Shown here in pieces: positions 1,948 to 59,891 of a stretch of DNA of 59,891 bases; the first letter of the stretch is position 1; the number at the start of each line of letters is the position of its first letter. A program made the position numbers and the translations under genes. Origin of the DNA: a virus; IMG/VR virus record IMGVR_UViG_3300006111_000001. One strand, 5' to 3'. The notes below the pieces were generated by a model. That model did not search any database and was not told the DNA's origin. It saw only the letters and a program-made list of their open reading frames with translations.

Positions 1948-2339
1948 TTGTAATAGCTCACGTTGATAGTGGCGCTTGCAGTCGTTTGAATAAACTGCAA
2001 CGAAGCCAGATTGCCCGTGTAAGACAAAGCAGAACCCGCCGCGACCAGCATGCCAACAGATGCAGTTGGTGCCACACCATCATCGCGCCACCGAACAGAT
2101 TGTGTTTCAACCACGATAACAGCCAATGTCGCCCCGGTCGGCACGGTCAAAAACGTTGCCCCAGACAATGAGGTGATTTGCTGATACCCCAATGGCGTTA
2201 CAAATGCCGTGGACACCGTGCAGCTTGGTTGACTGCCAGGGCATCCAACCGTTGAAATCTTACTTGGAACAACGCTTGCCGCAGTTTGGGCAAAAGCCGG
2301 TGATACCAAAAGCCAAAAAACGACAATTAACCATTTCAT
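1944..2339 (-). CDS. Small secreted/structural protein (signal-peptide-like N-terminus)
   Basis: 131 aa; MKWLIVVFWLLVSPAFAQ leader; start overlaps upstream stop (translational coupling). Confidence 0.45.
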   Translation of the reverse strand: MKWLIVVFWLLVSPAFAQTAASVVPSKISTVGCPGSQPSCTVSTAFVTPLGYQQITSLSGATFLTVPTGATLAVIVVETQSVRWRDDGVAPTASVGMLVAAGSALSYTGNLASLQFIQTTASATINVSYYK

Positions 2340-4747
2340 TTTTTGGCCTCCAATTCTTCAAGCCGGGCAGTGAGTTCACGCACCGCTTGCCACAACACCG
2401 GAATTAATTGATCCGGCCTCAAATGATGTGTGCCATCTTCGTCTTGCACATATCCGGCAAAATCTTTGCCCGTGGCGGCAAACGCATCGCGCACTTCGGT
2501 AGCCAAGAAACCCCAATGGGTCCGCTTGCCAGGACGATCCACAAATTTTTTAACTTTGACCTTTTTTGCGATCATGCGCGGGACAGGGTGCATTTTTTGC
2601 TGCAATTGTCCCGGCTCGCCTTTTTTGCCCGGCACAAATTCCATGACCGGATTGCCATCGGCATCAACCACCGGCATCAAGTCATAAACGCCAGTTTCCG
2701 TTTTAACGATCCGGTCAAACGCAACCGGCTTGCCGTCCACAATTTGAATATCGTGAACAACGCCCTCAGACACTTCGCTTTCGTGAACAAGTTGATCTTC
2801 TTCAACTTCAATTTCATCCCGTCCACCGGCAATCCACTTAAACGTCTTTGGTTCAAGGGATTTAATGATGGGCAACACATCCGAAACCGGCTCAATATCG
2901 GTTTTTAAACTTGGATCAGATGTTTGAATGGTGCCATTGACAGCCCACACCGCAGACCACCGGCCCGCCGCCGTGCCGCATGTGTAAGCATTGTCAGATA
3001 ACCCAGCCAAATGACCGCCAAACACAGCCGCATAACCACCGCCCCCGGTAAATGTGGCGCGTCCATTTAACGTCAAACCAGCCAGAACGCCCGTGCCGTC
3101 AATGTTAATATAAGCACTGGACGTTCCGCCGCTCAAAATGCCCACTTGACCAGACACGCATTGAATATAAGCCGTCCCCGGATTCATTGTGGAATCTGGA
3201 AACGCTTTACCCGCCCCATATGATCCGTTTAAATAAATGCGAGCGGAATCGGCCAAAACAATCGATGCACTGGTGCCAGGATTATATCGGTGCGCTTGGG
3301 TCAAGTCGATTGCCGCGCGATACCCGGACAGACCTTTAAACGAAATGCCCGCGTCCACCGGAAATTTTACAGTAGACCCGCCAATAACATTGGTTCCGCT
3401 GGAATCCATCAGCCAGCCAATCCACGTATTGCCGTAACCAACAGTCGTCGTGGTTCCGCTGTAGAAAGTGGATTGCGACGTGCTGGACCCGGCTCGCAGC
3501 ATGCTATGAAACCAACCGATACATGCCACGTCATAAGATGTGGTGCCAGAAAGATTGGTGTAATCAAATTCAAACGGGTTTAGATACGTGCCATCTTTGT
3601 AAGACGTGGCCCCGCCGTTCATGATTGAAACGGCAGGACACGTTGCAAACCCATAAGTCGCATCGCCGGACGTAATTGTGGGCTTGGCCAATGCCGAAAT
3701 GCCAACATTGACATTCAACGCGGCGCAATCGCCCTTATTGTCCTGATAGACATTTAATTGCATGCCAACGGCGCTTGTCCGTTGCGTCAACGGATTGCCA
3801 AAAACGGTATAATCCGTGCTGCTATTCCAGCCCGAATAGTTCCGCATAAACAAAGCAAAGGGAAAGGTTTGCGGCATGTAATAAATACCGGTTGAATACC
3901 CCCCCAGCGTGTTTAGGCCGGTGACATAATGTTCAATGGAAAAATTCTGGCGCGACCAATCCCCGTTAAAATATTTGGTATTATCGGCCAAAGCAAAATT
4001 AGTCAGGTCCGGTTGCATTGTGACCATTGAATAAAATTTGCCGCGCTTGGATTGCGAGCCATCCAACGCCAAAGACGCAACTTGCCCTTGACCATAGAAA
4101 TTTGCCGTTAATTTCGGCCAAGTCTGATATGTCGCACCACCCGTCGAGCTTCCGCCATCCGATGACGCGGTTATGGTTGTGGTATAAAGCCCAACGGGAA
4201 CATAAATGCTGCCATTTGTATTGGCGCCAATCGCCGTTGTGACCGCAACCGTATTGTCATACCCATAAGTCGAAATACCGCCATAATACGCAAGATTGCG
4301 CGGCAAATCCTGATCTTGAATGTTCCGAAATGTCGGAGACGCGGTGACACCCGTGGACGCATTCCCCGGCCCCGCCAAAAATGTTTGGCTGGACACCGAA
4401 ATAAACGACGCGCTTAAAGTGCCAAACGTGGTGACGGGCGATCCGGTAATACCAAATAAAGCCGTGGGCAAAAATAGGCCAACCGAATTGACCCCAGCCC
4501 CAGATACCGCGACCCAGCCCGCGCTTGTCGTGGTTCCCGTGGTGACACATGCATAATAAGCCCGATTGGTCACGTCATAGCAGAAATCGGGCGGTACACC
4601 CCCGGCAACACCTTGCTGCCCGGCAACATGCCCGTTTGGATTCCCGGCATAGACAAAGACATTAGGCGATTGAATATTTGAACTCATAAACCACCTATTG
4701 AACAAACCAATTGCCCGCGCCATCGCATTGCAGCGTTGCACTGGCAA
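2336..4747 (-). CDS. Tail fibre/tailspike with C-terminal intramolecular-chaperone (peptidase S74-like) domain
   Basis: 803 aa. C-terminal ~195 aa carry the hallmark pattern of the endosialidase/T5 L-shaped-fibre chaperone domain: ...TSDPSLKTDIEPV... and terminal ...HLRPDQLIPVLWQAVRELTARLEELE. N-terminal body is G/S/T-rich. Confidence 0.6.
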   Translation of the reverse strand: MPVQRCNAMARAIGLFNRWFMSSNIQSPNVFVYAGNPNGHVAGQQGVAGGVPPDFCYDVTNRAYYACVTTGTTTSAGWVAVSGAGVNSVGLFLPTALFGITGSPVTTFGTLSASFISVSSQTFLAGPGNASTGVTASPTFRNIQDQDLPRNLAYYGGISTYGYDNTVAVTTAIGANTNGSIYVPVGLYTTTITASSDGGSSTGGATYQTWPKLTANFYGQGQVASLALDGSQSKRGKFYSMVTMQPDLTNFALADNTKYFNGDWSRQNFSIEHYVTGLNTLGGYSTGIYYMPQTFPFALFMRNYSGWNSSTDYTVFGNPLTQRTSAVGMQLNVYQDNKGDCAALNVNVGISALAKPTITSGDATYGFATCPAVSIMNGGATSYKDGTYLNPFEFDYTNLSGTTSYDVACIGWFHSMLRAGSSTSQSTFYSGTTTTVGYGNTWIGWLMDSSGTNVIGGSTVKFPVDAGISFKGLSGYRAAIDLTQAHRYNPGTSASIVLADSARIYLNGSYGAGKAFPDSTMNPGTAYIQCVSGQVGILSGGTSSAYINIDGTGVLAGLTLNGRATFTGGGGYAAVFGGHLAGLSDNAYTCGTAAGRWSAVWAVNGTIQTSDPSLKTDIEPVSDVLPIIKSLEPKTFKWIAGGRDEIEVEEDQLVHESEVSEGVVHDIQIVDGKPVAFDRIVKTETGVYDLMPVVDADGNPVMEFVPGKKGEPGQLQQKMHPVPRMIAKKVKVKKFVDRPGKRTHWGFLATEVRDAFAATGKDFAGYVQDEDGTHHLRPDQLIPVLWQAVRELTARLEELEAKK

Positions 4748-5492
4748 AATTGGATCGAAGGTTAAAAGCGGACGTGGACCCTAAAATGGTGTCCCCGGAA
4801 TAAGGCGTCACAGCGATATTGTAGGTTTGAGCCGTGCCAATTTCGTCAGTAACGGTAATTTTGTTCCAGATATAAGTGGACGTGCATTGGTAAAGATTTT
4901 CGGTCTTGTTTGAAGCCGTGGCACTTTTCCAAGCAATCGTGCTTAGAGACGGAATTGCGGTATCCGTTGACCCAGATGTGATTTGGCGCCCCACATTGGC
5001 CGTTGACGTTGTGGTGGACACGGATAGTGAATTAATCTGGCTTTGAAGCTGTTGAGTGATATAGGTTAGGTAATCTAACCCGCCCTCAATCGCCTTAAAT
5101 GTCGGCCCCTGGTTGGAAATCGACACCGTTTGAACCAAAGGAACCACACGCGAAATCGTGATGTAATATCCCGCCGATAATGGCGATCCGGTTAAGGGAT
5201 AAGTGACCGTCCCGCCAATGCTTCCAACCCCTGTCAGGGTGTATTGGCTTGGCGTTAATGTGGTCAAAGTGTTGGGAGTGACATTGGTATTTAATACTGT
5301 GATGACCGCATCCCCAGCCGACACCATGGGGAAATTATAGGTGAACGAGGTTGTAACCCCATTTCCTTGCGCCGTGGTCGAACTTGACGTGGTTGAAACG
5401 GTCGAAAATACCGGGTCCGCAATCAGTCCCAGTACAACAAAGACCAGAATTTTAAACACGGCGGACAAGCGCATTTGCACCTTTTCCGCCAA
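4695..5492 (-). CDS. S/T-rich structural protein (fibre module)
   Basis: 265 aa; hydrophobic N-terminal segment then Ser/Thr-rich sequence; start may be the TTG at 5492 or the internal ATG (MRLSAVFK). Confidence 0.4.
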   Translation of the reverse strand: MAEKVQMRLSAVFKILVFVVLGLIADPVFSTVSTTSSSTTAQGNGVTTSFTYNFPMVSAGDAVITVLNTNVTPNTLTTLTPSQYTLTGVGSIGGTVTYPLTGSPLSAGYYITISRVVPLVQTVSISNQGPTFKAIEGGLDYLTYITQQLQSQINSLSVSTTTSTANVGRQITSGSTDTAIPSLSTIAWKSATASNKTENLYQCTSTYIWNKITVTDEIGTAQTYNIAVTPYSGDTILGSTSAFNLRSNFASATLQCDGAGNWFVQ

Positions 5493-5566: not shown

Positions 5567-8500
5567 CTATTCGCCATTCCTAGCCCGCATTTTATCTTCC
5601 ATTGCACCTTTGATAATGTCGTTTGGCCCCCCGACACTTTGAGCCGCAATCATATTTGCCGCAGCCGTCCGGCTGGATGAAATCGTTTTGGTGATGGTTT
5701 CCGCCCGGATATTCTTGGGGATTTGCTGCCAGCCCGGATTTTGAACCAAAGCGTTTAATCGCATTTTGGCTAACCGGCCCGCCGTCTGGGCATATTGGTC
5801 ATATTGCTCATCGGTCAAATCCTGCCCTCGGATTGACCGGCGCAATTTCCCAACCCCCAGACCCAAGGCGTTCATTTCCTTAACCACCGAATCATTGGCA
5901 TAACGATCCGCCGTGCCACTTTGCGGGATTGGTTCGCCAAACATATCTCGTTTGGGCAATAGGCCAATTGAGACAAACGGCACCTTGGCCTTGGCGGCAT
6001 CCAATAAGGTCCGCGCTTCGCGTTGATACGGATCGACCGCGTGAGCCACTTGACTCATGCCAACGCTAAACGGCATCCAATTGATGACCATCCCTCGAAT
6101 ATAGCTTTCGCCATATTCTTCCGGATGAAACACCGCATTCAGCATGTCAGACAATCCTTTCATAAAGGTTTCATCCAACACCGCTTTATTAAACCCTTCA
6201 AACGCCGCTTTGGCTAAAACCGTGCCATCTTCACCATCCCAGCCATGCGCGGCTTCGGTCATATTGGCCCCAAACCGCATAAGCATGGCAAACGGCCCCA
6301 GACGGTCATAGGCCACCGACACATCGCCAATGGTAATGTGATTGGGTTTATTGGCCATCAGCCACACACGGCGCTCATTGGGATCAGCAGGGCCATCCCC
6401 GGTCATCAACCCATTTAAGGTCATCATGACGGATGTACCGATTAAAGCCGTGCCGGTGGCGATTTTGCCAAATTGCATGTCTTGAGCAGACCCGCCGTTT
6501 TGCCCGGACAAATTGCCGCGCACGTCCCTATCCAATAAGCCAATGGGCGAGCGTTCAATAAATGCTTCGCGGGTTATTTGGGTGCCAATTTTCATAAACG
6601 GCACAATGATTTTTGCCGCTAGGTTTGAATTGGCCGCAGCTGTTAATTTCCCTGAAAACGAATTGTAATCCGCAGGCGCCATGAATAATTCTTTCATGGC
6701 ATCCGCACTTGCAGCAATCATCATTTCCGGTGTCGGCTTTTGAGTTAATTCCGCAACCCGTCCTTTGAACGCATCCCCGGTCAAACCATCATTCATGGCT
6801 TCCCGATAGGCCAAAGATTGAATGTTTTGCTCATATCGCAGGGATTTAAAAAACGAGTGAATGGCCGCAACCGATTTGGACGGCACATTGATAATTTCGC
6901 CAACCTTGCCCGGAATGGCCCGCGTGTTCATATCGGTAAAATGACCAGATACCTTTTCCCCAGGCAATGCAGGGGAAATGCCGGTTTTAAACGCTTGCGT
7001 TGCCGCCATTAAGCCATCGGATGATCCCTTCATCATGCCGTATAATTGCGCGCCCGCCTCACCTAAATAAACTCGATTTTTGACCTCATAGCCCAAAGCC
7101 TCGCGCGCCGCGCCGACCGCAGACGCCACCGGAATTTCGATCAAAGGACGCGCCAAGGCATTTAACGCATTGCCCACCGAATACCGGGCATGGGTTATCG
7201 GCCCCGAAATCAAAGCATTAACGTAATATTCCAATATGGCGTTTTTGATCGACCCACGGGCGGAATCATTAACAAACTTGGCCACTTGTCCCGGCGTTTG
7301 CAGGTTCATCCCAAATTGCGCTTCTTGCCTTAGTTGTTCCGGTGTCCGGCCAATGGTGCTTTGGAAGAATTGCGCCAACGCTTCGGCATCCGCCGACCCT
7401 TCCAGCTTACGGAATGCTCCCAACGCCCGGCCAGCTTCCGCCGTAATCCCCGCCACTTGCTCTTGAATCATCAAGTGACGTTGCCGCGCTTTGGCATAGG
7501 CCATCACATCGGCATCCGATCCATTGGCCGCTTTTGCCATCAAATCACGCACTTCCGTCGCAGATTGAATTAACAGCTTTCGAGCCGCAAGGATTTGTTC
7601 GGCGTTGAACGCTTCCCCGATCCGGCGCCAATTGAGTTTTGCCGCATTCATGCCCAAAGCATCGGCCAGGTCCAATTGTTCCCCGGCAGAAATCACGCCC
7701 CGCCGTGCGGCCATGAAATCTTCATTATCCGCCGCCGTTTGACGCAAAACTTCTTTTACATCTTCCGGTGTATTGAGATTATCTAACCGGATATTCCCGG
7801 CCTTATCTACAAGGTCTGATTCATCGGTTGCGAACCGCTCATTGGGTCCGGCTGGGTATTCTGTCTTGCTCCCATTAGACCTAGTGCTGCGTCCGCGTGA
7901 TCCGCTGCTTTCTTGAACATCGACCGCACCTCCTCCGGCAGGTCCTGATTGCCCGCCATCATCCGCGCTCTTGATCGGCCCTCTAGCAGATTCTTCCGCC
8001 CGGTATTCATTTTCCAAATCCTCCTCGGTGCGCGGATTGTCGTAATCCGGCACGTTATCACCTTCCCAAGCATCGCCTTTGGCTTCTAAATGAGACTTGG
8101 CCCATTCTTCCGCGTGGCGCAATTCGCGCTCAAAATCCGCTTCCTGAGAATGAATTTCCTTTAATTGTTCTTCGGTTGACATGCGGCTGGCAACTTCATT
8201 CCAGAACTCGCTATGCGACATGCCGTCCGCTTTAATGCCCAATTCCCCGGCAATTCGATCCACTTCGGAATTGTGGTTTAAAGCATCCTGATAGGCTTTA
8301 ACCTTGTCATAATCAAAATCGGAGAATTGATGGTCCCCGTTTACGTCACGGGTTAGCTTTTCCAAAAATTGATTAATCGTGGGACGTTCACCGCCCAATT
8401 CAGGGAAAAACCCGGCTTCTTCCGCCGCTTGCGCCACCCGGTCAATATCTTTGCCCGTTTTGCGCAGCACCCCGCCATTACGCTTGCCACCAAACAATGC

Positions 8501-11047
8501 CGCAATATCGCCCCGATCATTGCCAATTCCGCCATAAGATCGAACAAAATCGGTTAGCGTCGAAGGGCGCGCAGGAACCTTGGAATAAAGCTTTTGCTTT
8601 GAACTAGGGCCAAATTTTAGGTTTGACTCTTGTGGTGGTCCAATGCCTTCAACCTTAGCTTGACCTCCGCCCGCGCCGACCGTTCCAGATTTTTGTATAG
8701 CGCCATTTGTTCCGGTGTCAGGTCCGGACGCATTGACGCCACTGTCAGCACCTTCACTTCGTGCCGGGCTTTCGCCAGGTCCGTTTCCAATTCTTCCAGG
8801 CTGTAATTCATCCGAAATCTCCGAAGCATGTTCATCAGCTACCGCGTGACGCTCATCACGCACCCTATCGCCAACGACCTTTGCTTGGTTCCCCGGCGTG
8901 TGTTCCGCATCGCCTTCATGCAGCGTTGCAAAATCAGCCCCCAAAGCACGATCCGGCGCTATTGTAACCTTTTCCGGGTTGGTTGACAAAAGCCTATCGA
9001 ACACGTCCCGAATATCGTCATTGATAGGCGATTTCAGCCGGGTCACGGTTTCATAAATCTTGGTCAGCCATTGTTTAAATTGATCAAACACCCGCGCTAG
9101 GGTTTGGCTTGGCGCGCGGCCTTCCATCAAATAACGTTCAAACCCGCGCGCAAACTTTTCATGCGCCCGCGTCGGTATGGCCTCATCCTCGCTAACCCCA
9201 AGCCATTTACGCACCGTTGCAGCATCCGCCTTAATTTGATCCGGTGCAGCCTCATGAACGGCATCGGCCATCATTTCTTCTAGAAACTTATGGCCGGTTT
9301 CATGGATAAAAGTTGACGCATCGGCGCCCTTGAACAGTTTGATAATTGTCTTATTTTCCCGGAATTGAACAGAACCCCGCTTGGCTTGCTCATATTCCTT
9401 GGCCGTGATTTCCGGCGCTTGATCCTTTTTTTGCGCCATTTCCCGCACACGTTCGCGCGCGGCTTGGATGACGGCCCCATCCCGGTTAAACAATTCCAAC
9501 GGCGATCCCAGCTTGCCGCCCATGCGCGCCGCCCGTGTTTCATACCTTGCCGCGATTAATTGAGCAGCGGCTTCCGCTTCATCCCTTGGCCGTCCGGCAT
9601 CTTCCAATTGACGCGCGACCCTAGAGGCAATTTGCGCCTTTTGTTGTTCAATCGGCAATTCTGTTTTGGCCGGTGTCTCGTCAGGCTTTACACCCTCCGC
9701 CGCAGGTTCACCCGGTTTAGTCTCGACCGGCTTGGCCGTTTCAGTGACCGTTTCATTTTTCGGTTGCGCAGTTTCCGTTTCACCTTGCTCCCGGCCCTGA
9801 ACGCGCGCCTCATCAACGGCTTGCTCGACTTCCGGTGCGGCTTCTTGCGGCATACGCTCTTGCGCTTCCCGATATGCTTTTGTCACATCCGGCGCTAAAT
9901 CGCGCATTTTATAATCATTTTCTTGCAGCACGCGGCGGATGCGCGCCATGTCCGGCGAATCCAGCTTGGCCGTGCTTTCAATTTCGTCCAATTGATCCCG
10001 CAAATCAGATAACCGGCCCGCTTGACGTTTGGTCAAACGATCTTCGACACCATTAACCTTGGCTAAAATATCGTCAATTTCGCTATTGATTGATTTTACA
10101 TCTTCCCGGTTAGCGTGTGCTTCATCGCGCGTTTCCGACAGCTCATTGAGCCATTTGCGATAGGTATCGCGCCGCGCCACCAAAGCATCGTATTTTTCAA
10201 ACGTATCGGGATCAATTTGACGCGCAATAGAATGAATATCCGGCTGTGCTTCTTGCGTTGTGGCTTGAACCGGCGTTGCCTCCGGTGTCGCTTGAGCCTC
10301 CGCCCCAGCCGCCCCTTGTTCGGCAAGCTGATCTTCTAACGGTTTGACACTGGATTTTAAATCATCCGCCAATGCACCATCGGCCAATGGTTCAGGTTCT
10401 TTCAGTCCAAAATAAACCGCGTCATCCCCGCCAATGACTTTGTTCTTAATGGCATCATTCCAAAACTTTGCCGGTGCCGGATGAAACTTTGACCCAAATG
10501 GAAAGCCCATGGCTTCCATGTCCATAATGCCCGTTACGTCCCGTCCCAGCTTATTCAAGCCAAACACGCCACCCGTTGCATTATTGGCTTCTTCACCCGC
10601 CTGAACGATACCCGCTTGGACGCCGCTATACCCCGCCGCACCTACTCTTAAAGCTGCATTTGCCGCCATGACCGCAGGGCGCATGAACGTATCATTAAAC
10701 CCACCCATGAAACTGGGTTTTTTGGGATCGTTAAACCAACCCAGTTTTTTAAAGAAATCTTCGCTTTCCGGAGACAACGCCATTCCTTCCCAGCCGGTTT
10801 TTACGCCGCCCACAAAAGCATCAGTAATCCTGCCTTCCGGTGTCCCCTTGAACCATTGATTAAATTGGTCAGACGTATTGGCTAAAGGCTGAATAGGCGG
10901 CACTTTTGGCAGACGCGCATCAACACCCGGATAAAATGGCCCAGGTTGAGCAGGCGCATGCTGATCCAGCAATGAATCAACGTCCATTGACTGATTCGGC
11001 GCATGCGCATCCAATAAATCATCGACAGATGACGGCTGATCGGTCAT
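5567..11047 (-). CDS. Giant internal virion/ejection protein (T7 gp16-like position), polyvalent, with HExxH zincin-like motif
   Basis: 1826 aa; last gene of a gp11-gp16-like series. Contains a long acidic, probably coiled region (aa ~220-500) and the motif ...ASTFIHETGHKFLEEMM... (HExxH, codons ~9290..9304). Confidence 0.5.
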   Translation of the reverse strand: MTDQPSSVDDLLDAHAPNQSMDVDSLLDQHAPAQPGPFYPGVDARLPKVPPIQPLANTSDQFNQWFKGTPEGRITDAFVGGVKTGWEGMALSPESEDFFKKLGWFNDPKKPSFMGGFNDTFMRPAVMAANAALRVGAAGYSGVQAGIVQAGEEANNATGGVFGLNKLGRDVTGIMDMEAMGFPFGSKFHPAPAKFWNDAIKNKVIGGDDAVYFGLKEPEPLADGALADDLKSSVKPLEDQLAEQGAAGAEAQATPEATPVQATTQEAQPDIHSIARQIDPDTFEKYDALVARRDTYRKWLNELSETRDEAHANREDVKSINSEIDDILAKVNGVEDRLTKRQAGRLSDLRDQLDEIESTAKLDSPDMARIRRVLQENDYKMRDLAPDVTKAYREAQERMPQEAAPEVEQAVDEARVQGREQGETETAQPKNETVTETAKPVETKPGEPAAEGVKPDETPAKTELPIEQQKAQIASRVARQLEDAGRPRDEAEAAAQLIAARYETRAARMGGKLGSPLELFNRDGAVIQAARERVREMAQKKDQAPEITAKEYEQAKRGSVQFRENKTIIKLFKGADASTFIHETGHKFLEEMMADAVHEAAPDQIKADAATVRKWLGVSEDEAIPTRAHEKFARGFERYLMEGRAPSQTLARVFDQFKQWLTKIYETVTRLKSPINDDIRDVFDRLLSTNPEKVTIAPDRALGADFATLHEGDAEHTPGNQAKVVGDRVRDERHAVADEHASEISDELQPGRIGNGPGESPARSEGADSGVNASGPDTGTNGAIQKSGTVGAGGGQAKVEGIGPPQESNLKFGPSSKQKLYSKVPARPSTLTDFVRSYGGIGNDRGDIAALFGGKRNGGVLRKTGKDIDRVAQAAEEAGFFPELGGERPTINQFLEKLTRDVNGDHQFSDFDYDKVKAYQDALNHNSEVDRIAGELGIKADGMSHSEFWNEVASRMSTEEQLKEIHSQEADFERELRHAEEWAKSHLEAKGDAWEGDNVPDYDNPRTEEDLENEYRAEESARGPIKSADDGGQSGPAGGGAVDVQESSGSRGRSTRSNGSKTEYPAGPNERFATDESDLVDKAGNIRLDNLNTPEDVKEVLRQTAADNEDFMAARRGVISAGEQLDLADALGMNAAKLNWRRIGEAFNAEQILAARKLLIQSATEVRDLMAKAANGSDADVMAYAKARQRHLMIQEQVAGITAEAGRALGAFRKLEGSADAEALAQFFQSTIGRTPEQLRQEAQFGMNLQTPGQVAKFVNDSARGSIKNAILEYYVNALISGPITHARYSVGNALNALARPLIEIPVASAVGAAREALGYEVKNRVYLGEAGAQLYGMMKGSSDGLMAATQAFKTGISPALPGEKVSGHFTDMNTRAIPGKVGEIINVPSKSVAAIHSFFKSLRYEQNIQSLAYREAMNDGLTGDAFKGRVAELTQKPTPEMMIAASADAMKELFMAPADYNSFSGKLTAAANSNLAAKIIVPFMKIGTQITREAFIERSPIGLLDRDVRGNLSGQNGGSAQDMQFGKIATGTALIGTSVMMTLNGLMTGDGPADPNERRVWLMANKPNHITIGDVSVAYDRLGPFAMLMRFGANMTEAAHGWDGEDGTVLAKAAFEGFNKAVLDETFMKGLSDMLNAVFHPEEYGESYIRGMVINWMPFSVGMSQVAHAVDPYQREARTLLDAAKAKVPFVSIGLLPKRDMFGEPIPQSGTADRYANDSVVKEMNALGLGVGKLRRSIRGQDLTDEQYDQYAQTAGRLAKMRLNALVQNPGWQQIPKNIRAETITKTISSSRTAAANMIAAQSVGGPNDIIKGAMEDKMRARNGE

Positions 11048-13389
11048 TGCATTGGCACCGTGGGCTTATAGGCTTCGGTTGCCCATTTGTTATCTAGCAA
11101 AGCTTTTCGCGCTTGGTCGCGCGTGATTTTGCCTTGATTGAAAGCCGTTAGCACATTTTCCTTTGTGGACAAATCCACCGCAGCGGCTTTAACGGGCGCC
11201 GTCTGAGTTGGGACAACCGATTGCGGATTGCCCACCAATACGTCAGCTTGCCATTGATTAAACGGGCGCGCATACCCTTTAGTTAATTCGCCCAAAGATT
11301 CCGGGTTTCCAAAACTCAATAATTTGGCCGGTGGAATGCCTTTTGCCCGACCCTCTTTGTAAGCATCGACAAATGACCCCAAGAAATTTTGATAAAGTTG
11401 ATCCCCCTTGGGATCAACAAACCCCATGTGCTCATTCGAGCCTGTAATTTGACCCTTGGCGGCTTTTAAAAACTCTGTTTGCAATTGCTTTTCGGAATCA
11501 TTTTGCGCCATCAGGGTTTGAAGGTGCTTAAGCCCCTCAAAATTCAACCCGCCATCTTTGAAATGCTGCATTAATTGTGATGGATCGGTAATTTGTGGCC
11601 CATTAGGTGACGGCGCCAAAACTTGCGCGACCAAATCGGGAAAATCCTTGCCATACAACGCCGCGTCTTTGTTCACTCCATGCGCCGCTGCCGTCAAAAC
11701 ATGTGTTTGAATGCTCGTGGCAAATTGCGGAGAATGCGCCATTGACCGTTCCCACGCGGCTTTCACGTCAGGACTAATCGAGGTCAGTTGTTCAATAGAC
11801 GTGGGTTTTTGACCCGTCCGGTTTAATTCCCCGCTGACAGCCTGAACGACCAAATCATTGTCCGCCTTATAAGACATTTCCTGTTGGCGGATTTGGTCAC
11901 CCAATCTCTGCTCAACCCGCGACCGGGCCAAATCCCTGAATTGTTGATCCCCAGGCCGTTGCGCTTCCGCTTGATCTTCCGCTTGCTTGACAATCGCCGC
12001 ATAATTCTGCCGCAAATAATCCGTCGAGGTCAGCATGGGCCGGTTATCGTTCCCAGCCGCATTTGCAACTTTGGTCGGTTTTTGACCCGCGAAAGCTTGT
12101 TCGATTCCTTGCGTTACGGACGTATCGTCAAACGCCGCTCGATCCGCTTGACCCTTTTCAGCGGGAACAATTGCCTTGATTAAGGACGATACCGCCGTTT
12201 TGTCATCCATATTTGGCACCGCATTGGGCGCAAGCCCGGATGCCCTGGACACATTATTGACCCAATTATCCACTTCACTTTGTGGCTGATCCTTGCCCAC
12301 CCATTTGCGCCCGATTTCCGCAAGTGTCATTCCCCGGTAATTATTACGAAGATTGGATGCCGTCGCGTTCACCCCATCGGCAGGTGTCGCATAGTTTTCA
12401 AAATCCGGCACATTATTGGCAATGCCATAAGCAGATTTGATATTTCCAGGGTTATTAGACCCTTTATTCAGCCCATTGGTAAATGTCTGGGTCGCTGTTC
12501 CAATGACATTATCGGCAATGGACCGGGTTTGCGCGTCTTTAATCTTGGGCTGCAAAAACGCTTCAATCTGAACTTGAGCCGTGCCGGGAATGCGCGACCG
12601 ATTGTCTTGAAACAATTTTGCCGCCATATCGACATTGGAATTGGACAGCGTGCGCAGTCTTTCTTCCCATGCCTTACCCACGGCGGTATCTCGAACGGAT
12701 TGATAAACGGACGACGCCCGCTTGCCATTTTCGCTGTCGTCAAATGATAACAACCCATCATCTTGTTGGGTCATGCCCGTACCAGCATCCCATCCTTGGG
12801 TTTGCATTTGACGCGCCACGCCAAAATTCACGTCATGCAAAATATCTTCAAACCGCATGTCATTGGCGGCAATGGATGAATCCCCAGCCCTTGAGACAGC
12901 CGTTAAAACCGACGCATGGGCGGAATCCGCGTCCGCCTTTTTAACTTGGGTCGCGGAATAATTATTGGCATCCGAAAGCGCATAACCCTCATGCCTTAAT
13001 GCCAATGTGGTAAACGCTTTTTGAACCGCAGGATTGGGCAGCGTTTCTAACAATTGTTGACGTAAATCTTGAACGTCTTGACTATATTGAGGAAGGGCCG
13101 CAACCGCCGCCAAGCCCTCTTTTGACTTATACGCCGCGCTCAATTTGGACAATTGGTCCATATAAGTTGTTTCGGCATTTGTGGCCATTGTCTCGTTCAG
13201 CATGCCTTGTTGTTTCAGGGCAATATCACCAGCTTCTTGACCGGCATGCTGAACCGATTGACCCAATCCCGAAATAGCAGACGCAACCCCGGCGCCAAAC
13301 GCATCCGGAGACGCATTGACATTCAAAAACCCACCGGATGGTCCGTTAGGTTGAACGCTCGGTATGGCGTCGGGCGTTGCAATGGGCAT
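11044..13389 (-). CDS. Internal core protein (T7 gp15-like by position and size)
   Basis: 781 aa, helix-rich, between the gp14-like and gp16-like ORFs; start/stop overlaps (ATGA) with neighbours. Confidence 0.45.
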   Translation of the reverse strand: MPIATPDAIPSVQPNGPSGGFLNVNASPDAFGAGVASAISGLGQSVQHAGQEAGDIALKQQGMLNETMATNAETTYMDQLSKLSAAYKSKEGLAAVAALPQYSQDVQDLRQQLLETLPNPAVQKAFTTLALRHEGYALSDANNYSATQVKKADADSAHASVLTAVSRAGDSSIAANDMRFEDILHDVNFGVARQMQTQGWDAGTGMTQQDDGLLSFDDSENGKRASSVYQSVRDTAVGKAWEERLRTLSNSNVDMAAKLFQDNRSRIPGTAQVQIEAFLQPKIKDAQTRSIADNVIGTATQTFTNGLNKGSNNPGNIKSAYGIANNVPDFENYATPADGVNATASNLRNNYRGMTLAEIGRKWVGKDQPQSEVDNWVNNVSRASGLAPNAVPNMDDKTAVSSLIKAIVPAEKGQADRAAFDDTSVTQGIEQAFAGQKPTKVANAAGNDNRPMLTSTDYLRQNYAAIVKQAEDQAEAQRPGDQQFRDLARSRVEQRLGDQIRQQEMSYKADNDLVVQAVSGELNRTGQKPTSIEQLTSISPDVKAAWERSMAHSPQFATSIQTHVLTAAAHGVNKDAALYGKDFPDLVAQVLAPSPNGPQITDPSQLMQHFKDGGLNFEGLKHLQTLMAQNDSEKQLQTEFLKAAKGQITGSNEHMGFVDPKGDQLYQNFLGSFVDAYKEGRAKGIPPAKLLSFGNPESLGELTKGYARPFNQWQADVLVGNPQSVVPTQTAPVKAAAVDLSTKENVLTAFNQGKITRDQARKALLDNKWATEAYKPTVPMQ

Positions 13390-13925
13390 TAGATCACACC
13401 GGCCATTTTATACCCAGCCGCTTGACCGGATAGTGAAGATGCCCCGCTTAACAATGAACTAAACGCGCCAATCTGTCCCGCAGCCGCCGCATTCTCGCCT
13501 TTGAGCGTATCCAATTGAGAATCCGCCTGAAACCCAGCACCCTCAAGGTCATAGCCATAGGCTTGCTTGGCGGCATTGGATCGAACGGTTAAAGCGTTTA
13601 ATTGTCCGGTTTCCGCCGCCGATGACCGCACGTCCACAGATGACCCGGAATTAACATCGACTCCAGACGCAGCTTGAGCGGCCTTAATAGCCCCCAATTC
13701 TTGCCGATTTTTTTGCCCTTCATTGGCGGTTTGCTGTTCGCCCGCAACAGACGCCACCCGCGACTTTTCCCCGGCGATAATGGCGTTATTTTGCGCGACT
13801 TGAGCTTGATAATTTGCCGCCGCTCGCTGCGCTTCGCCTTGACGAATATTGCCAAGGATCGAAACGCCAGTCCCCACACCCGCCGTTGCCAATGCTGCAA
13901 TTGCTAATGTAGTTGGTTCACACAT
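13389..13925 (-). CDS. Internal virion protein (T7 gp14-like by position)
   Basis: 178 aa, Ala/Gln-rich with hydrophobic N-terminus; synteny only. Confidence 0.4.
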   Translation of the reverse strand: MCEPTTLAIAALATAGVGTGVSILGNIRQGEAQRAAANYQAQVAQNNAIIAGEKSRVASVAGEQQTANEGQKNRQELGAIKAAQAASGVDVNSGSSVDVRSSAAETGQLNALTVRSNAAKQAYGYDLEGAGFQADSQLDTLKGENAAAAGQIGAFSSLLSGASSLSGQAAGYKMAGVI

Positions 13926-14378
13926 TTACCGCCTCAATTCAAATCGCCGAAACAAGGCCCGCTTTGGTCCAAATTCAACGGGCGGACCAAGATCAAACCC
14001 CAGAATCAAAAGAAACCCACAGGCTTGCACGTAGGATGCCAGCACATAATTTTCCAATAAAGGAAACATTGCTTGCATCTTGGCCACTTCGCGCCGCCCT
14101 TCCCTTACAAAAGAAAATGGCACGCGCTCAATAGCCTCAGACGTTAAAAGCCATGGATAACCCACACCCGATAAGACCGATCCGCCAACCCCAAACATGC
14201 ACGCAATGTCGCCATCAACAAATGCCGTGCGTCGAATAATGCTACCACGAAACGCCTTAAACAGCGCCCGATTGGGCGACATGCCCACGGACGTTAATTC
14301 TAATTTATCACCCCGACGCAGCTTATCTGCCAACATCGAAACGTGATTTAATTGCGCGGGAACAATTTGATACCTCAC
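13926..14378 (-). CDS. Small virion protein (T7 gp13-like by position)
   Basis: 150 aa; directly downstream of the tail-tubular-B-like gene; synteny only. Confidence 0.35.
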   Translation of the reverse strand: MRYQIVPAQLNHVSMLADKLRRGDKLELTSVGMSPNRALFKAFRGSIIRRTAFVDGDIACMFGVGGSVLSGVGYPWLLTSEAIERVPFSFVREGRREVAKMQAMFPLLENYVLASYVQACGFLLILGFDLGPPVEFGPKRALFRRFELRR

Positions 14379-17300
14379 CCGGCACTATCCCCAACATCAA
14401 ACCATGGCACCATTGCCAAAACCGTCAAAGGTAAAGGTTGCGTTTGCTGGACCGCAATTTGCCCCTTAGTCCCACCCAGCCCATCATTGATATTGTTATA
14501 AATATCCCCGGTGAAAAGGGCATAGGGCTGCAAAGGATTATTTGTCCCGACCGGTGCTGCAAATTGCGTCATATTCAACCATGTAACCGTTGCATTCCCA
14601 GGCTGAACGGATTGATCCGGCTGATTGGTTCCCACTTCAAAAACAGACCCGGAATTTTCAACCCGAACCGTTGCATTATACGCGACTTTTCTGCGTCCCT
14701 GAACAGTCACTTGCGCTGGAAAATCCAAATACATGGTTTGCAATTGCGCCGTGAACCCAAGGCCCACCACAATATTTGATGCAGCGACCGATAATGTAAC
14801 CGTACCGCCAGACACCACTTGAGGCGCTTGAACCACGCCATCCGCCAAAATTGAAACGGTCATGCCTTCCAAATGGTTCAGCCCATAAACCGTTGTGATC
14901 GGAGTGGCGATTGACCACGTACCCGGCGATTGCGGAATGGGCAGATTATTGGGGTCATTTGGAAAAGTCTGCGTAATTGGCCGCACGACCTGAACAGATA
15001 AATGACTTGAATCAATATAGGATAAAACCGTCAGCAGACCCCCGCCGATCCGGATAACATCGCCCGCTTGGCCATAGCCCGCCGTATTCGACAGCACCGC
15101 CGCACTTGTGGAAAATGTGGTGACGTTGAGCGAAAAAATATTAACAACCGCGCCGCCGCCCTGATTGGTCGGATCGACTACAACAAATTTAGGGTTTGTG
15201 TATCCCGTCAAGGTCCCGATAACCCCCACGGCGGTAATAGCCCCAGCCGTCACTGTTACCGTGCCGATAGCCCCTGATCCGGTTGGATCGTCAATCCGAG
15301 CATAAGTCGTATCGGAATAATTCTGACCTCCATAAGCCAAAACAGGTTGTTGAAGTGTCGGTGTTCCCGTCGCGCTTAAAACGCTGGCATAGGTTTCCGG
15401 TTGATTTTGGGTATAAGACAGCCCGGCATCAACGCACCACGCATCATCTATGGTTTCCCATAGCCGGTCATTCATGCGTTCCAGATAATACGCATTAACC
15501 CCCGCCCCAGGAATATACCGTTGAACCACAAAATAAGCCGCGTCCACCGGAGGCTCAGAAATCGAACAGACCGATTTAAACAAGCCATTGGTGTCATGCC
15601 GTGACCACGCATAAACGTCTTGCTCTTTCAAATAAGTCAGATTGAGCAAAATGCCGTCATCGCGCACGGCCCATAAGAGCTTATTCGGCTCCTCGCACCA
15701 ATCCCACCGCACGATCGTATGGCCATCAAACAGATGGTTTGAAAGCACCGTCAAATCCGTGCCGGTATAGATATTCGTAAAAAAATTATAGCTCAGATCA
15801 CGGACAATAGAGCCTTTTTCCTGAACATAGAGAATGTCAAAATTGACCGGAATGGGCCGGATTGTCGGAGAGCATCCGGTATAGGCTTGCGGCGCGGCAA
15901 ATTGATTTGACGGCGTGATGGCCGTTCCCGATTGCCCCGATCCGGATAATTGCCACGCTCCGCGCCCGGTCAAAACCACCAAGCCCCCAGGCATGTTAAT
16001 CATCCATTGAATGCCATTGACTTGTTGCGACCATGGAGTCCCAACAATCGCATCATCGGCTTTGGTCGGAATAGACCGATCCATATTAGTGAACGCGCCA
16101 GGTTGAGACGCAAAATAAGTGTCCGGATTGTTATACGTGGACGCATAAAACCGGCGTTGCTGGAAATACGCACAAACTCCCGGATAAGTCCCAGTGGACG
16201 GGCCGACTTGAATTGTACCTTGTGCGCCCGATCCGGTTGAATCAATAAATGACAATGTGTCAGAGGTCGAATACCCATGACCCCCATTGTCAATCGTGAC
16301 CCATTGGATTTGACCATCAATAACAACCACTGTACCGGCAAAGCTAGACCCATTGGTCGATGAAATTGATACCGTCACCCCAGCCGTGGAATAACCAGAC
16401 CCCGGATTTGTCACATTAATAGACGTGACCGAGGACGTAGCAAACGGATTGGTATGGATGGGCGGCGATACGGTATAATCAGGCGTGATATTGGCATCCG
16501 TAAAACAGACACCCCGGCTGGTTCCGATATACCCGTAAATCTGGCCCCCCACGGGAGGGGACGCATAAGACACGGGCGCCCGATAAAAATTATAGGATTC
16601 CGCCGTGGTCACTGGATTGCAGTTAATCCGAATGGTCCCGGCTTGCGCGGAAATATTAACCGATGCCACCGTATAAGGTGGAGACGCTATGCTTTCCTGC
16701 CCCGTGACCGCATCAACCGCCGTGGCCACATATTGATAGTAGAAAGACGTTGTGGACGTGGTGACGCTGGATGCAGACGCAAATAAAGCCGTGGGCGCAG
16801 CAATCGCCACATCAAAGCTGGTTTGCGTCAATGTCCAATTGTTATAATTGATCCGGGTTAAATCATAGGGCGGATAGGACGGATGAGTAAGCGTCATCAC
16901 GTCCGCGCTTTGGGTCCATTTTAACAAAGGAAGATCAGACGCGGCGTAAGGCGTTGACACCTCGTAAATGCGCGCCAGCGTTCCCCCGCCGGTCCATAAC
17001 GGCCAATTGGTCGCATCGACATTTCCACCGGTTAAAGGATCAAGCAAAGTGACCCCAATTGGGGACCGCGTGCCAATCACAAATAACCGGCCATTAACTT
17101 CCGGAATACCCCCAATACCAGACGCATAAACCCAATCGCCCGGCGCCCAAAGGTTATTGACCGAAATTAACGCGGGCGAAACATTGTTAAACCCATAAAT
17201 GGGTATTGGTGTTTCGGTGACATAAGCCCCATCAATGGCAAATCTCAAATAATTATCGCCAAATTCAAGTGCTATGCCTTGAGTGACCGAGTATTGAAAC

Positions 17301-17524
17301 GGGATCAAAACAGGCGGCAATGCAGCATTATTGCCCAGCGACCCTTGTTTGCATTGACCCACAAAAGCCGTTCCCGCGCGCGATGCAGCGCCGCCGCGAT
17401 AGGACGCAAAGAAATTGCGCAGCGTCGAACAACCTTTGCGGTATTTATCAAGGTCTGTCCGGCCAAATAATGACGGCGATAATTCACCAGCATTTAGGGC
17501 ATTTTGTAAAATGGGCGCTGTCAT
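14375..17524 (-). CDS. Tail tubular protein B-like (nozzle)
   Basis: 1049 aa; follows the gp11-like ORF with 1-nt spacing. N-terminus (MTAPILQNALNAGELSPSLFGRTDLDKYRKG...) resembles podovirus tail tubular/nozzle N-termini; beta-rich. Confidence 0.5.
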   Translation of the reverse strand: MTAPILQNALNAGELSPSLFGRTDLDKYRKGCSTLRNFFASYRGGAASRAGTAFVGQCKQGSLGNNAALPPVLIPFQYSVTQGIALEFGDNYLRFAIDGAYVTETPIPIYGFNNVSPALISVNNLWAPGDWVYASGIGGIPEVNGRLFVIGTRSPIGVTLLDPLTGGNVDATNWPLWTGGGTLARIYEVSTPYAASDLPLLKWTQSADVMTLTHPSYPPYDLTRINYNNWTLTQTSFDVAIAAPTALFASASSVTTSTTSFYYQYVATAVDAVTGQESIASPPYTVASVNISAQAGTIRINCNPVTTAESYNFYRAPVSYASPPVGGQIYGYIGTSRGVCFTDANITPDYTVSPPIHTNPFATSSVTSINVTNPGSGYSTAGVTVSISSTNGSSFAGTVVVIDGQIQWVTIDNGGHGYSTSDTLSFIDSTGSGAQGTIQVGPSTGTYPGVCAYFQQRRFYASTYNNPDTYFASQPGAFTNMDRSIPTKADDAIVGTPWSQQVNGIQWMINMPGGLVVLTGRGAWQLSGSGQSGTAITPSNQFAAPQAYTGCSPTIRPIPVNFDILYVQEKGSIVRDLSYNFFTNIYTGTDLTVLSNHLFDGHTIVRWDWCEEPNKLLWAVRDDGILLNLTYLKEQDVYAWSRHDTNGLFKSVCSISEPPVDAAYFVVQRYIPGAGVNAYYLERMNDRLWETIDDAWCVDAGLSYTQNQPETYASVLSATGTPTLQQPVLAYGGQNYSDTTYARIDDPTGSGAIGTVTVTAGAITAVGVIGTLTGYTNPKFVVVDPTNQGGGAVVNIFSLNVTTFSTSAAVLSNTAGYGQAGDVIRIGGGLLTVLSYIDSSHLSVQVVRPITQTFPNDPNNLPIPQSPGTWSIATPITTVYGLNHLEGMTVSILADGVVQAPQVVSGGTVTLSVAASNIVVGLGFTAQLQTMYLDFPAQVTVQGRRKVAYNATVRVENSGSVFEVGTNQPDQSVQPGNATVTWLNMTQFAAPVGTNNPLQPYALFTGDIYNNINDGLGGTKGQIAVQQTQPLPLTVLAMVPWFDVGDSAG

Positions 17525-18292
17525 TTAATAACTCAGCCCATCAGCAAACACCACATTATCCCAATTCATTGGGAAGCCGCCCGCAGACCCAAAAGCCCAA
17601 GGCACAGATGACACCATACGAGCCTTGAACCAATCCGGTATGTGGTCTGTATCGTTAATGCCTTCATTGCCCGATCCAGATCGAGCATCCATAATCGCGT
17701 TCTTGGCAATGGCAATCTGATCTTTTAATTGCTGTTCATTCCGGGCCAGCGCATTAATAAAGTAAGACGCAAGATAAGCCGTTGCCGCCGTCAAAAACAA
17801 TGAATCCCACAAATCGGGCACTTGGGTTAAATCCCGCGTGTAAATCAATTGGGCTTGTTCCAAATTGGTCAGAATGACCTTAATCGGACTGCCATTGGTG
17901 TCGTAATCCGTACCCACCACAAAAGGCGTTGTGGTATCCACCGCTTGCGCGGGTTGCCATACCGTTTGACCCGTGGTCAAAGGCACCGTGCTGCCCGTGG
18001 TATTTGTTTGAGTTGGAATGATAAACCGGGCCTCCAAACAATCGGAGGGCCAAGCATATTCATATAAAAAAGGTTGCGGCGGCGGGTTTGAATCCGTGTA
18101 GGATTTCAATTGCGTTAAAGCAATTTGACCGCGCCAGCCGTTCCAAGGCGCCCCCCGCGCCAATGCTTGCATTTTGGGCGTATAAAACAGCTTGGCAATA
18201 TTGGCTTGCGGCGATCCATCATCAAACGATGAAATAGACGTGCGGTTGCCAATTTCAGCCAAGGCAAGATTGCACACATCAACCGCGTTCAT
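17525..18292 (-). CDS. Tail tubular protein A-like (T7 gp11-like)
   Basis: 255 aa. N-terminus MNAVDVCNLALAEIGNRTSISSF...GAPWNGW and C-terminal ...AATAYLASYFINAL follow the pattern of T7 gp11 (…[21 protein letters not shown]…SRGWTF…). Confidence 0.5.
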   Translation of the reverse strand: MNAVDVCNLALAEIGNRTSISSFDDGSPQANIAKLFYTPKMQALARGAPWNGWRGQIALTQLKSYTDSNPPPQPFLYEYAWPSDCLEARFIIPTQTNTTGSTVPLTTGQTVWQPAQAVDTTTPFVVGTDYDTNGSPIKVILTNLEQAQLIYTRDLTQVPDLWDSLFLTAATAYLASYFINALARNEQQLKDQIAIAKNAIMDARSGSGNEGINDTDHIPDWFKARMVSSVPWAFGSAGGFPMNWDNVVFADGLSY

Positions 18293-21051: not shown

Positions 21052-22092
21052 TCAGACTAGGGTGGCTTCGGTGTTTACGAGCGTGTCGCAAACACGAATG
21101 GGGATGCCACGGAACTCGACAACCGGCTCACCGGCATACTCCGTGGGTTTCAACAACACGTTCTTGTCGCGGATAGCCTGAATGTCCAGGTACTCGCGGA
21201 CGGTACGGTTGACATAGAATGCCGGGCTGATACCGGGCGCCGGTTCATCCGGAGCATCCGTTTCCGTAATGCCAGATGCGCGCTTGGTCAGCGTCGGTAA
21301 ACGCACAACCGCCTTGCTCATGTAATAGAACAGGTCAGGCGGCGTTGAACCTTGCAGACCGACCGTTGTGGTGTCAATATTGGCAATGCGGCAAATATAA
21401 CGCCAATCCTTGGTGACCAAACCCGCATTCCATTGGAAATACGAGGTATAGGCCGGGAAGGGATTGTTGGCGGCGTCATAACCCGGAACCACATCCCCAC
21501 GATCTTCAAACACCAGACCAGCCTTCGACCCTTGCGGGAAAATGCCAAAGCAAGTGTTGTCACCCCAGCCAACAAGCCAGATTGAAGCGTTTGACGACCC
21601 GGTGCCACCGGCGTCAATCACGTTCTGAGCATTGGCGGCAGTGGTGGCCGTCTTGGTATTAAAGCGCGGCGAGAAACCCGTGAACTGGGTCGGAGCCGTG
21701 GACACGTTGCCATAGAACAGCGTGGTTGCCATTTGCTGGCTCAAACCTTCCAAATGGGCGTTATCTTCCGACATGCGAACTTGTGCGACCTTGCCGCCCA
21801 ATTCCGCCACCATCTTGTCAACTTGGCTATAAGCAGCCAATTGGCCAATGGCATCGGTCACTTGCGCCGTGCGCGACTTGGTGTAAGGAACGCCACCATA
21901 AGCCGCGCGCCAGGTGCCTTGCGGCAGACCGGTGCGGATCGTGCTTTTGTGACCAGTCGGCAGGTTGGATTCAACCCACAGCATGTCCTTAAACACTTCG
22001 TTGCACTGAGACAACAATTCAGCAATTTCCGCCACCGACCCATCCGGGTCCATGCGACGGGTCACGTCCAGAAGGGAAAGGTAAGCCATCAA
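21052..22092 (-). CDS. Putative major capsid protein
   Basis: 346 aa (T7 gp10A is 345 aa), directly after a scaffold-like acidic protein and before a terminator-like hairpin; position and size only. Confidence 0.5.
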   Translation of the reverse strand: MMAYLSLLDVTRRMDPDGSVAEIAELLSQCNEVFKDMLWVESNLPTGHKSTIRTGLPQGTWRAAYGGVPYTKSRTAQVTDAIGQLAAYSQVDKMVAELGGKVAQVRMSEDNAHLEGLSQQMATTLFYGNVSTAPTQFTGFSPRFNTKTATTAANAQNVIDAGGTGSSNASIWLVGWGDNTCFGIFPQGSKAGLVFEDRGDVVPGYDAANNPFPAYTSYFQWNAGLVTKDWRYICRIANIDTTTVGLQGSTPPDLFYYMSKAVVRLPTLTKRASGITETDAPDEPAPGISPAFYVNRTVREYLDIQAIRDKNVLLKPTEYAGEPVVEFRGIPIRVCDTLVNTEATLV

Positions 22093-24147: not shown

Positions 24148-24474
24148 TCACTTTAGCGCCTTTCTCATATCCGCAATGACCTCCGGATGGTCATTGATAA
24201 ACTGCAATAGAAACGGGGATATTGCCCGAATAACCCGTTCCTCCTCTTTCATTGGCAATCCAACCATAGACGTGCGGAATATCGTGTGAAGTAATTCATG
24301 CAAGAATGTTTCAGCTCGCACTTGCTGTTCTAAATCTTGGTCAATCCTGATTGTGGATTTGTGATCCAGAAACACGCCTTGGGTGTCATCGTAAAAATCA
24401 TATAGCTCTACTTTGATTTTTCGATACCCAACGCGGATTTCTGTTGGAAGTTTCATGCCGCCCACCGTACCCAA
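24148..24474 (-). CDS. Small protein with HExxH motif (possible mini-zincin)
   Basis: 108 aa; ...ETFLHELLHTIF... motif. Confidence 0.4.
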   Translation of the reverse strand: MGTVGGMKLPTEIRVGYRKIKVELYDFYDDTQGVFLDHKSTIRIDQDLEQQVRAETFLHELLHTIFRTSMVGLPMKEEERVIRAISPFLLQFINDHPEVIADMRKALK

Positions 24475-25820: not shown

Positions 25821-25827
25821 GGTTCAC

Positions 25828-59771: not shown

Positions 59772-59891
59772 TCAGATTGATATAGGTTGACGTGGAAACG
59801 GTCGGAGTCGCCGTCAACGTATCGCCGCTTTTCAAAAACAAATATGGATTTCCATAATTGTCCAATGGCAAACCCTGCCAAGTTGCAGAAT
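59772..59891. repeat. Terminal direct repeat, right copy (identical to 1..120)
   Basis: Exact 120-nt match to window start; implies a unit genome of ~59771 bp. Confidence 0.9.

Follow-up and report, generated by a model that had tools for sequence, protein, structure and literature searches.

The window analysed here, a 59,891-nucleotide stretch of viral DNA (IMG/VR virus record IMGVR_UViG_3300006111_000001), carries at 5567..11047 on the minus strand an ATG-initiated open reading frame (ORF) that encodes 1826 aa followed by a stop codon. The encoded protein is a minimal, cargo-poor and ordinary member of a very large polyvalent-protein family. It is apparently the largest internal-virion (ejection) protein of a podovirus, its packaging in the capsid and its ejection being presumed from gene position and homology, and it contains a block with an HExxH motif that is a discrete mobile module. 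Comparison of the relatives gives a clear rule, namely that in the gene-16 slot, on two unrelated backbones, toxin-like cargo is exchanged while the HExxH module next to it stays. The best explanation overall, to which we would give an even chance, is that a polyvalent-type, metallopeptidase-like module within this ejection protein processes it once ejection has taken place.

The gene itself is secure. The JGI and Logan gene callers arrive at the identical 1826-aa product, in at least 12 metagenomic contigs. The ORF overlaps the preceding upstream gene (781 aa, in the gp15 slot), the stop codon of that gene and the ATG sharing the sequence ATGA. The initial annotation had described the protein as larger than typical, which is true in comparison with T7 gp16 (1318 aa) but not within its own family, where the 133 relatives longer than 1000 aa have a median length of 1790 aa.

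The assignment to the ejection apparatus comes from the C-terminal core (aa ~1076–1826, 5570..7822; like all the parts of the protein described below, on the minus strand), which is homologous to internal virion proteins. Using tblastn, about 20 marine T7-like phages were found in which the matching protein is annotated as 'internal virion protein (D)'. The family phrog_6651 ('internal virion protein') matches aa 1520–1689, and hhalign aligns the C-terminus with Syn5 gp45 (Prob 99.6%) and with the internal virion protein D (IVP-D) of Desulfovibrio phage ProddE (Prob 100%) over some 530–560 columns. One hydrophobic segment, aa 1529–1547, is found within the core. No similarity to T7 gp16 was detected (hhalign Prob 0.1%, BLASTP E>1), and Syn5 gp45 and ProddE IVP-D are likewise without detectable similarity to T7 gp16. 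A full-length profile compared with PDB sequences returned coiled-coil noise and no phage ejection protein, and there was no SLT/lysozyme Pfam match in the protein that would indicate an N-terminal lytic transglycosylase of the T7 type. The earlier placing of the ORF in a gp16-like slot is thus upheld, given a T7-like structural module with neighbours identified by PHROG and a C-terminus homologous to the internal virion proteins of Autographiviridae. The term 'gp16-like' applies by gene slot and by homology to Autographiviridae gp16-slot proteins, and not by similarity to T7 gp16.

The HExxH module (aa ~554–697, 8957..9388) is a putative metal-dependent hydrolase, predicted to consist of a β-hairpin, the HExxH helix and four more helices. 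Its motif, FIHETGHKF, contains the only HExxH in the 1826 residues (HETGH, aa 582–586, 9290..9304), whereas 0.03 would be expected by chance from the composition of the protein. It is not a chance match, because the motif is invariant in all 156 homologous copies. A second motif region, HEKFARGFERYLMEG, is found at aa 629–643, starting with HEKFARGFE (9137..9163), in which H629, E630 and E637 provide candidates for a third metal ligand. The initial annotation had noticed both the HExxH and a downstream helix containing glutamate, and it was right on both counts: the first is present and single, and in the second E630 and E637 are invariant and lie on a helix predicted by AlphaFold2 (AF2) at aa 625–641. 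Altogether, 14 residues are invariant in the 156 aligned copies, these being S578, H582, E583, H586, H629, E630, A633, E637, G643, P646, L650, F654, W660 and Y665.

The module is widespread. With aa 496–705 as the query, a search returned 26 short proteins and gene fragments, two of them (P0018 and P0020) fusing the module to MuF_C; the genomic context of P0018, which adjoins a transposase, was uninformative. A profile of the module, run against 1.84 billion cluster representatives, gave 11,744 matches, with 6,240 at E<=1e-30, and the best 150 of the 11,744 are nearly all within proteins of 1,500–2,900 aa. In GTDB genomes the module is located inside giant ORFs, the longest being 4,977 aa. Among the hosts are Alpha-, Beta- and Gammaproteobacteria, Desulfovibrio and relatives, Myxococcales, Bacteriovorax, Bacteroidetes, Synergistaceae, Pirellulales and Selenomonadaceae, and many of the loci retain the order gp12-gp13-gp14-gp15-giant-fibre. 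Cultured phages that carry it include Bordetella BPP-1 (Bbp10), the Caulobacter Rauchvirus phages, the Xanthomonas CP2-like phages, Pseudomonas AF, PfDIW6 and HU1, and phages of Vibrio, Acinetobacter, Nostoc and Microcystis.

Some of the carriers in metagenome-assembled genomes (MAGs) are very long. There is a 4,977-aa ORF with LPD38, ddrB-ParB and helicase domains in a Bacteroidetes MAG (L047, 1622–16552), an ORF of at least 4,774 aa in a Selenomonadaceae MAG (L046, 1943–16264), a 3,820-aa ORF in a Pirellulales MAG (L045, 3419–14878) and a 3,364-aa ORF with GGDEF in an Archangium MAG (L024, 3722–13813). In GenBank the carriers are named 'hypothetical', 'crystallin beta/gamma motif-containing', 'lysis protein' or 'lysin' (for example NC_005357 bbp10, OQ137562 RapA_gp039c, PP438410 and MW805363), and nothing under the module itself supports the crystallin, lysis protein or lysin names.

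The domains surrounding the module were analysed in an alignment (A3) with 23 collinear relatives of 37–48% identity. In these relatives insertions of 45–200 aa or more cluster at a hotspot that directly follows aa 546 and immediately precedes the module. This first cargo slot is empty in the present protein. In the relatives it contains PBECR3 (P0047), GNAT (P0054), LPD3 with ART-PolyVal (P0063), Zeta toxin (P0084), RuvA_C with ART-PolyVal (P0166) or ART-PolyVal (P0070). The arrangement is repeated in giants that begin with LPD22: Bbp10 has LPD22 at aa 41–138, PBECR1 at aa 643–729 and the module from aa ~764; RapA gp39 has LPD22, ART-PolyVal at aa 612–777 and the module from aa ~785; and a Burkholderia prophage has LPD22, PBECR1 at aa 677–763 and the module from aa 810. 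Partners of the module in other giants are LPD38, ddrB-ParB, helicase domains, GGDEF, LPD3 and MuF_C.

A second slot, which is filled here, holds an optional 'mid' module of about 175 aa (aa ~825–1000, 8048..8575). It is missing from 5 of the 23 collinear relatives, and in other giants, including those of PfDIW6 and CP2, it is found on either side of the HExxH module. It is Gly-rich, with conserved GG, PGL, G..LD and E.GY and few charged invariant residues; it had no Pfam match, and no word-index match when searched alone. None of the polyvalent-specific Pfam domains (LPDs, ART-PolyVal, PBECR, MPTase-PolyVal) was found in the protein at E<=1. What can be recognised here is the HExxH module together with functionally unassigned modules, the multi-activity domain sets belonging to the collinear relatives. 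The ORF does lie among the virion and packaging genes of a phage with portal and terminase, which is the context of phage polyvalent proteins. The initial annotation had suggested a polyvalent ejected effector; the family is indeed polyvalent, as seen from the cargo of the collinear relatives, but no recognisable effector cargo is present in this member.

Upstream of the first slot, A3 delimits four parts. The Gly/Ala-rich N-terminal domain (aa ~50–245, 10313..10900) is conserved in the collinear relatives, both in A3 and by BLAST coverage, has no Pfam match and is unrelated to the LPD22 N-terminus of the Bbp10-type giants. It is followed by a helical, coiled-coil-like region with conserved motifs (aa ~262–400, 9848..10264), for which PDB and Pfam searches gave coiled-coil-type noise only; phrog_9880 matches aa 249–690. 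Then comes a Pro/Glu/Thr-rich acidic linker (aa ~401–470, 9638..9847), recognised by its composition and poorly conserved in A3, and finally a small conserved helical module (aa ~471–546, 9410..9637) that ends at the slot. The last has invariant L481, A484, G485, R486 and E490 and the consensus 'AAGRP..EA.AAA.L.AA.YE.RA.R.GG..GTA.ELY'. A copy of its motif sits inside the slot-1 stretch of P0166, a similar segment matches a giant of Xanthobacter flavus (L019; 42% identity, E 7e-4), and the motif may be an adaptor that travels with cargo.

These boundaries alter the earlier description of this region as a highly acidic helical segment of about 280 aa forming one long linker. Helical parts are present (aa 262–400 and 471–546), but the composition of aa 221–500 is only moderately acidic (21.8% D/E, 13.6% K/R, net charge −23), and a single long acidic linker is not found, since only aa ~401–470 is linker, between two conserved helical modules. 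On the other side of the HExxH module, a linker (aa ~698–824, 8576..8956) has a conserved start (A697, H710) and continues as Gly/Ser/Pro-rich low complexity up to the mid module, and an acidic Gly/Ser-rich low-complexity linker (aa ~1001–1075, 7823..8047, recognised by composition) leads into the C-terminal core. The whole protein and its segments matched nothing in Pfam, and PDB sequence searches (phmmer and hmmsearch, with the protein, A1, A2 and A3 as queries) gave coiled-coil or ribosomal noise only.

We consider it fairly probable that the module is a metal-dependent hydrolase of the polyvalent-MPTase kind. The evidence for a possible zincin is the motif, the invariance, the predicted topology and the context. 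Two AF2 models of the module region were generated, with predicted local distance difference test (pLDDT) scores of 79.5 and 83.7. In both, the β-hairpin runs directly into the HExxH helix (aa 576–596), and the later helix bears the invariant H629, E630 and E637, 44–51 residues past H586. Among the sub-threshold Pfam matches of 55 members, the commonest are zincin families, namely Reprolysin_3, M32, SprT-like, M1 and M3.

A number of results weigh against this reading. The two strands predicted before the HExxH helix (aa 557–562 and 565–570) form only a two-stranded hairpin, whereas the sheet of a canonical zincin core has three strands. Foldseek gave no match at E<1 for the AF2 model against PDB, and the zincin matches were gone with a trimmed AF2 model. 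Profile searches of PDB and Pfam were without a zincin match, and no Pfam model, the families derived from PMC5512222 included, detects the module. The domain-by-domain profile searches and structure prediction that the initial annotation had proposed as a check therefore bear out its internal virion homology but provide no significant zincin match. Finally, the C1 HExxH domain of the phage N4 virion RNA polymerase (vRNAP), represented by an alignment of 80 N4-like sequences, matched the module in hhalign with P=5.7e-4, but this became P=0.45 once the HExxH was masked. The match to N4 vRNAP C1 was accordingly discounted as a sign of homology, its signal depending wholly on the motif and 8-column block shuffles scoring 30.0 vs 30.1. 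A di-iron or hemerythrin-like fold was also rejected, there being one ExxH only and just two weak Hemerythrin matches among the 55 members.

The segment right after the module (aa ~690–698, …EKVTIAPDR…, 8954–8980 on the minus strand) is conserved, with the consensus PExTVIAPER and with E692 and A697 at >=80–90%. In the trimmed AF2 model it makes a short β-bridge with the residues following the invariant E642-G643. It may be a docked cis-substrate, or just the last strand of the fold.

On the basis of these observations, we propose the following mechanism. The C-terminal ~750 aa would be a conserved ejectosome core that travels inside the capsid and, on infection, leaves through the tail and helps to form the DNA conduit, as suggested by gene position and by homology to Syn5 gp45-type proteins. 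Upstream of it is fused a modular passenger region, whose constant element is the ~140-aa HExxH module. This module would most likely be the 'MPTase' hub, zincin-like and metal-dependent, that is known from phage polyvalent proteins, with H582 and H586 plus either E630 or E637 as probable metal ligands and E583 as the probable general base. In the relatives, toxin-like cargo is carried directly N-terminal of the module, with the second, optional slot downstream between low-complexity linkers. The likeliest job of the module would be a cut in cis of the giant polypeptide, after ejection and refolding, which would detach the passenger half from the C-terminal half that forms the channel.

The topology of delivery is a difficulty for this proposal. 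The N-terminal part of T7 gp16 stays periplasmic, while gp16-C reaches the cytoplasm (PMC8954989), and N-terminal cargo acting in the cytoplasm would therefore need an extra, unproven translocation step. The cargo in the relatives (NAD-dependent ART, RNases and zeta toxin) does act in the cytoplasm, and release in cis would address this topological problem. It is possible, although we think it unlikely, that adaptor helix, cargo slot and protease make up a standard cassette in which the module is a release protease triggered by ejection. Such a protease would be inactive while packed in the capsid and active after tail passage and refolding. It would cut at …TVIAPER… just downstream of the module, or in the flanking low-complexity linkers, and the N-terminal passenger half, with any toxin plugged into it, would be freed from the C-terminal half in the membrane channel and would reach the cytoplasm. 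If this were true, the gene-16 slot of temperate T7/BPP-1-like podoviruses would be a general platform for effector injection.

Alternatively, the module could itself be the ejected effector, a metalloprotease that acts in trans, soon after infection begins, on proteins of the host, for example envelope or defence factors. The invariance of its residues is enzyme-like, this option was explicitly left open for polyvalent MPTases by Iyer et al. (PMC5512222), and the module is retained here despite an empty first slot, which implies that it is useful without a recognisable toxin to release. However, it is the constant partner of cargo that varies greatly, on two unrelated backbones and in many phyla, and a host-specific target should drive more divergence than the 45–65% identity observed; nor was any similarity found to known effector proteases. 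Such constancy beside variable cargo is more in keeping with a processing enzyme than with an anti-host effector, and we regard action in trans as an improbable explanation.

The lack of a transglycosylase raises a further alternative, that the module is a cell-envelope peptidase, acting on peptidoglycan or lipoprotein, which aids the crossing of the wall and replaces the lytic transglycosylase of T7 gp16. In favour of this, no SLT/lysozyme domain was detected in the protein or in the gp15-slot protein, several homologues are named 'lysin' or 'lysis protein' in GenBank, and an ejection protein of cyanophage A4 holds a metallopeptidase, of the M23 type (PMC12002296). Yet BPP-1 and PfDIW6 have both an SLT in the gp15 slot and the HExxH module, which is thus no substitute for a lytic transglycosylase; the module is also found in ParB/helicase/GGDEF proteins of 3,000–5,000 aa without the full flanking gp12-gp13-gp14-gp15 block; it adjoins cargo that acts in the cytoplasm; and it resembles neither the M15 nor the M23 wall peptidases. 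A wall peptidase is thus very unlikely. It is also rather doubtful that the module is not a peptidase at all. It would then be a helical metal-binding or structural element, for example one controlling folding and unfolding during packaging and ejection, or would carry out other HExxH chemistry, such as that of the Fe/alpha-ketoglutarate type 'alphaKG-HExxH', which is cited in a phage N4 paper. We retain as the preferred explanation an ejection protein that is processed by its own metallopeptidase-like module.

The genome in which the ORF is found is that of a short-tailed phage (podovirus) with a T7/BPP-1-like structural module. The window ends in an exact 120-bp direct repeat (1–120 and 59772–59891) and corresponds to a 59,867-bp JGI metagenome contig (3300025435 Ga0208618_1000037), which makes it a complete phage genome of ~59.8 kb, assembled as a circle. 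This is ~15 kb bigger than the BPP-1-like phages that share this structural module. A search of the window revealed no tRNA genes. There is no close cultured phage, megablast being empty and the best portal identity 37.5%.

The late module is on the minus strand, its genes being assigned by PHROG. It consists of a terminase fragment and portal (28935–30800), a scaffold/protease-like gene (22089–22946), the major capsid protein (21052–22092), tail tube A (17525–18292), tail tube B (14375–17524), the gp13-like (13926–14378) and gp14-like (13389–13925) genes, a pair covered by matches to phrog_308 and phrog_418, and the gene for the 781-aa gp15-slot protein (11044–13389), which is conserved in related prophages. 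Beyond the target ORF are a tail-fibre adaptor (4695–5492) and a tailspike (2336–4747). The resulting order of gp11, gp12, gp13, gp14, gp15-slot protein, target ORF, fibre adaptor and tailspike recurs in more than 10 related prophage loci. Pfam, PHROG and PDB yielded no match for the gp15-slot protein, which also lacks the SLT domain of its counterparts in BPP-1 (Bbp11) and PfDIW6, and tblastn probes with Bbp11, PfDIW6 gp15 and T7 gp16-N found no transglycosylase (SLT/lysozyme) anywhere in the window.

Other genes of the window have features of their own. Tail tubular protein B has 1049 aa, compared with 712 positions in the PHROG profile, and an insert at aa ~353–440 matches a domain of head-closure and giant virion structural proteins. 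The minus-strand region 24453–27513, which lies between the genes for portal and scaffold/capsid, encodes an exonuclease-like protein of 455 aa and another, of 561 aa, in which two parts resemble glycosyltransferases. A 390-aa ORF on the plus strand (55662–56834) weakly resembles O-GlcNAc/GlcNAc transferases of the GT61 type. The position and number of the glycosyltransferases are unusual for a podovirus structural block.

It is worth considering what the family offers. It includes phages that can be cultivated and manipulated, in Bordetella BPP-1 and its relatives from Caulobacter, Xanthomonas and Pseudomonas. The module is at present unannotated or misannotated in GenBank. The rule of adaptor helix, cargo slot and HExxH module is in our view a useful and testable synthesis rather than a new category. 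It links the polyvalent-protein concept, which is computational, with structural work on podovirus ejectosomes, neither of which cites the objects of the other, and it allows a direct test of the self-processing proposed for the metallopeptidase-like hub. A role of the gene-16 slot in effector injection is undescribed in the ejectosome review (PMC8954989) and in the papers found by our search, and a literature search on internal virion and polyvalent proteins, LPD22 and Bbp10 gave nothing relevant beyond PMC5512222.

The closest published concept is that of polyvalent proteins, injected giants organised around a zincin-like peptidase (Iyer, Burroughs, Anand, de Souza and Aravind, J Bacteriol, 2017; PMC5512222), a paper that does not mention gp16 or internal virion proteins. 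The MPTase hub described there shares with the present module an HExxH on a helix followed by a conserved acidic residue on a later helix, a location within giant, virion-associated multidomain proteins, a set of partners (ART-PolyVal, PBECR1/3, ddrB-ParB, SNF2-type helicase, MuF_C and LPDs) and a proposed role in polyprotein processing. It differs in that one widespread phage clade has a signature of a His after strand 2 and an Asp at +3 (PMC5512222), which the present module lacks.

Within cultured phages, the giants of the BPP-1 Bbp10 type (RapA gp39, CP2 ORF24, PfDIW6 and AF) are encoded in the slot that the present protein occupies, flanked by the gp15-slot protein and the tail fibre, and contain the HExxH module with 35–51% identity (hhalign Prob 100% over 140 columns); those of PfDIW6 and CP2 have the mid module in common with the present protein as well. 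In contrast, hhalign detects no homology in the remainder, the module being the only region shared with the type as a whole. The Bbp10-type proteins start with LPD22 and have PBECR1 or ART-PolyVal just before the module, and both features are lacking here.

The proteins of the T7 gp16/IVP-D group, including Syn5 gp45 and that of ProddE, have the same gene position and the same presumed role in the DNA ejectosome, and with Syn5 gp45 and ProddE IVP-D the homology covers the C-terminal ~560 aa. With T7 gp16 there is no sequence similarity, and the present protein is without its N-terminal lytic transglycosylase. It has ~1,000 extra N-terminal residues made up of modular passenger domains. A review of ejection proteins gives sizes of 609–1337 aa for gp16-like proteins and mentions neither a protease nor an effector (PMC8954989).

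Two further systems resemble the present one in part. Another giant ejected from the virion, the N4 vRNAP gp50, has an HExxH in its C1 domain (res. 2124–2375) (PMC13434306; PMC5512222), and by eye this domain and the present module share the local pattern 'G..(x)..KTI.L...S..T.IHE..H..EE'. The downstream invariants are different, however, being ALNEFMAW in N4 and HEKFARGFE in the present module, and homology is not established. The MuF-toxin fusions of temperate phages likewise have a carrier packaged in the virion, with swappable effectors at the C- or N-terminus, and in P0018 and P0020 the module is itself fused to MuF_C. The difference is that the carrier here is apparently an ejectosome protein, and not the MuF head protein.

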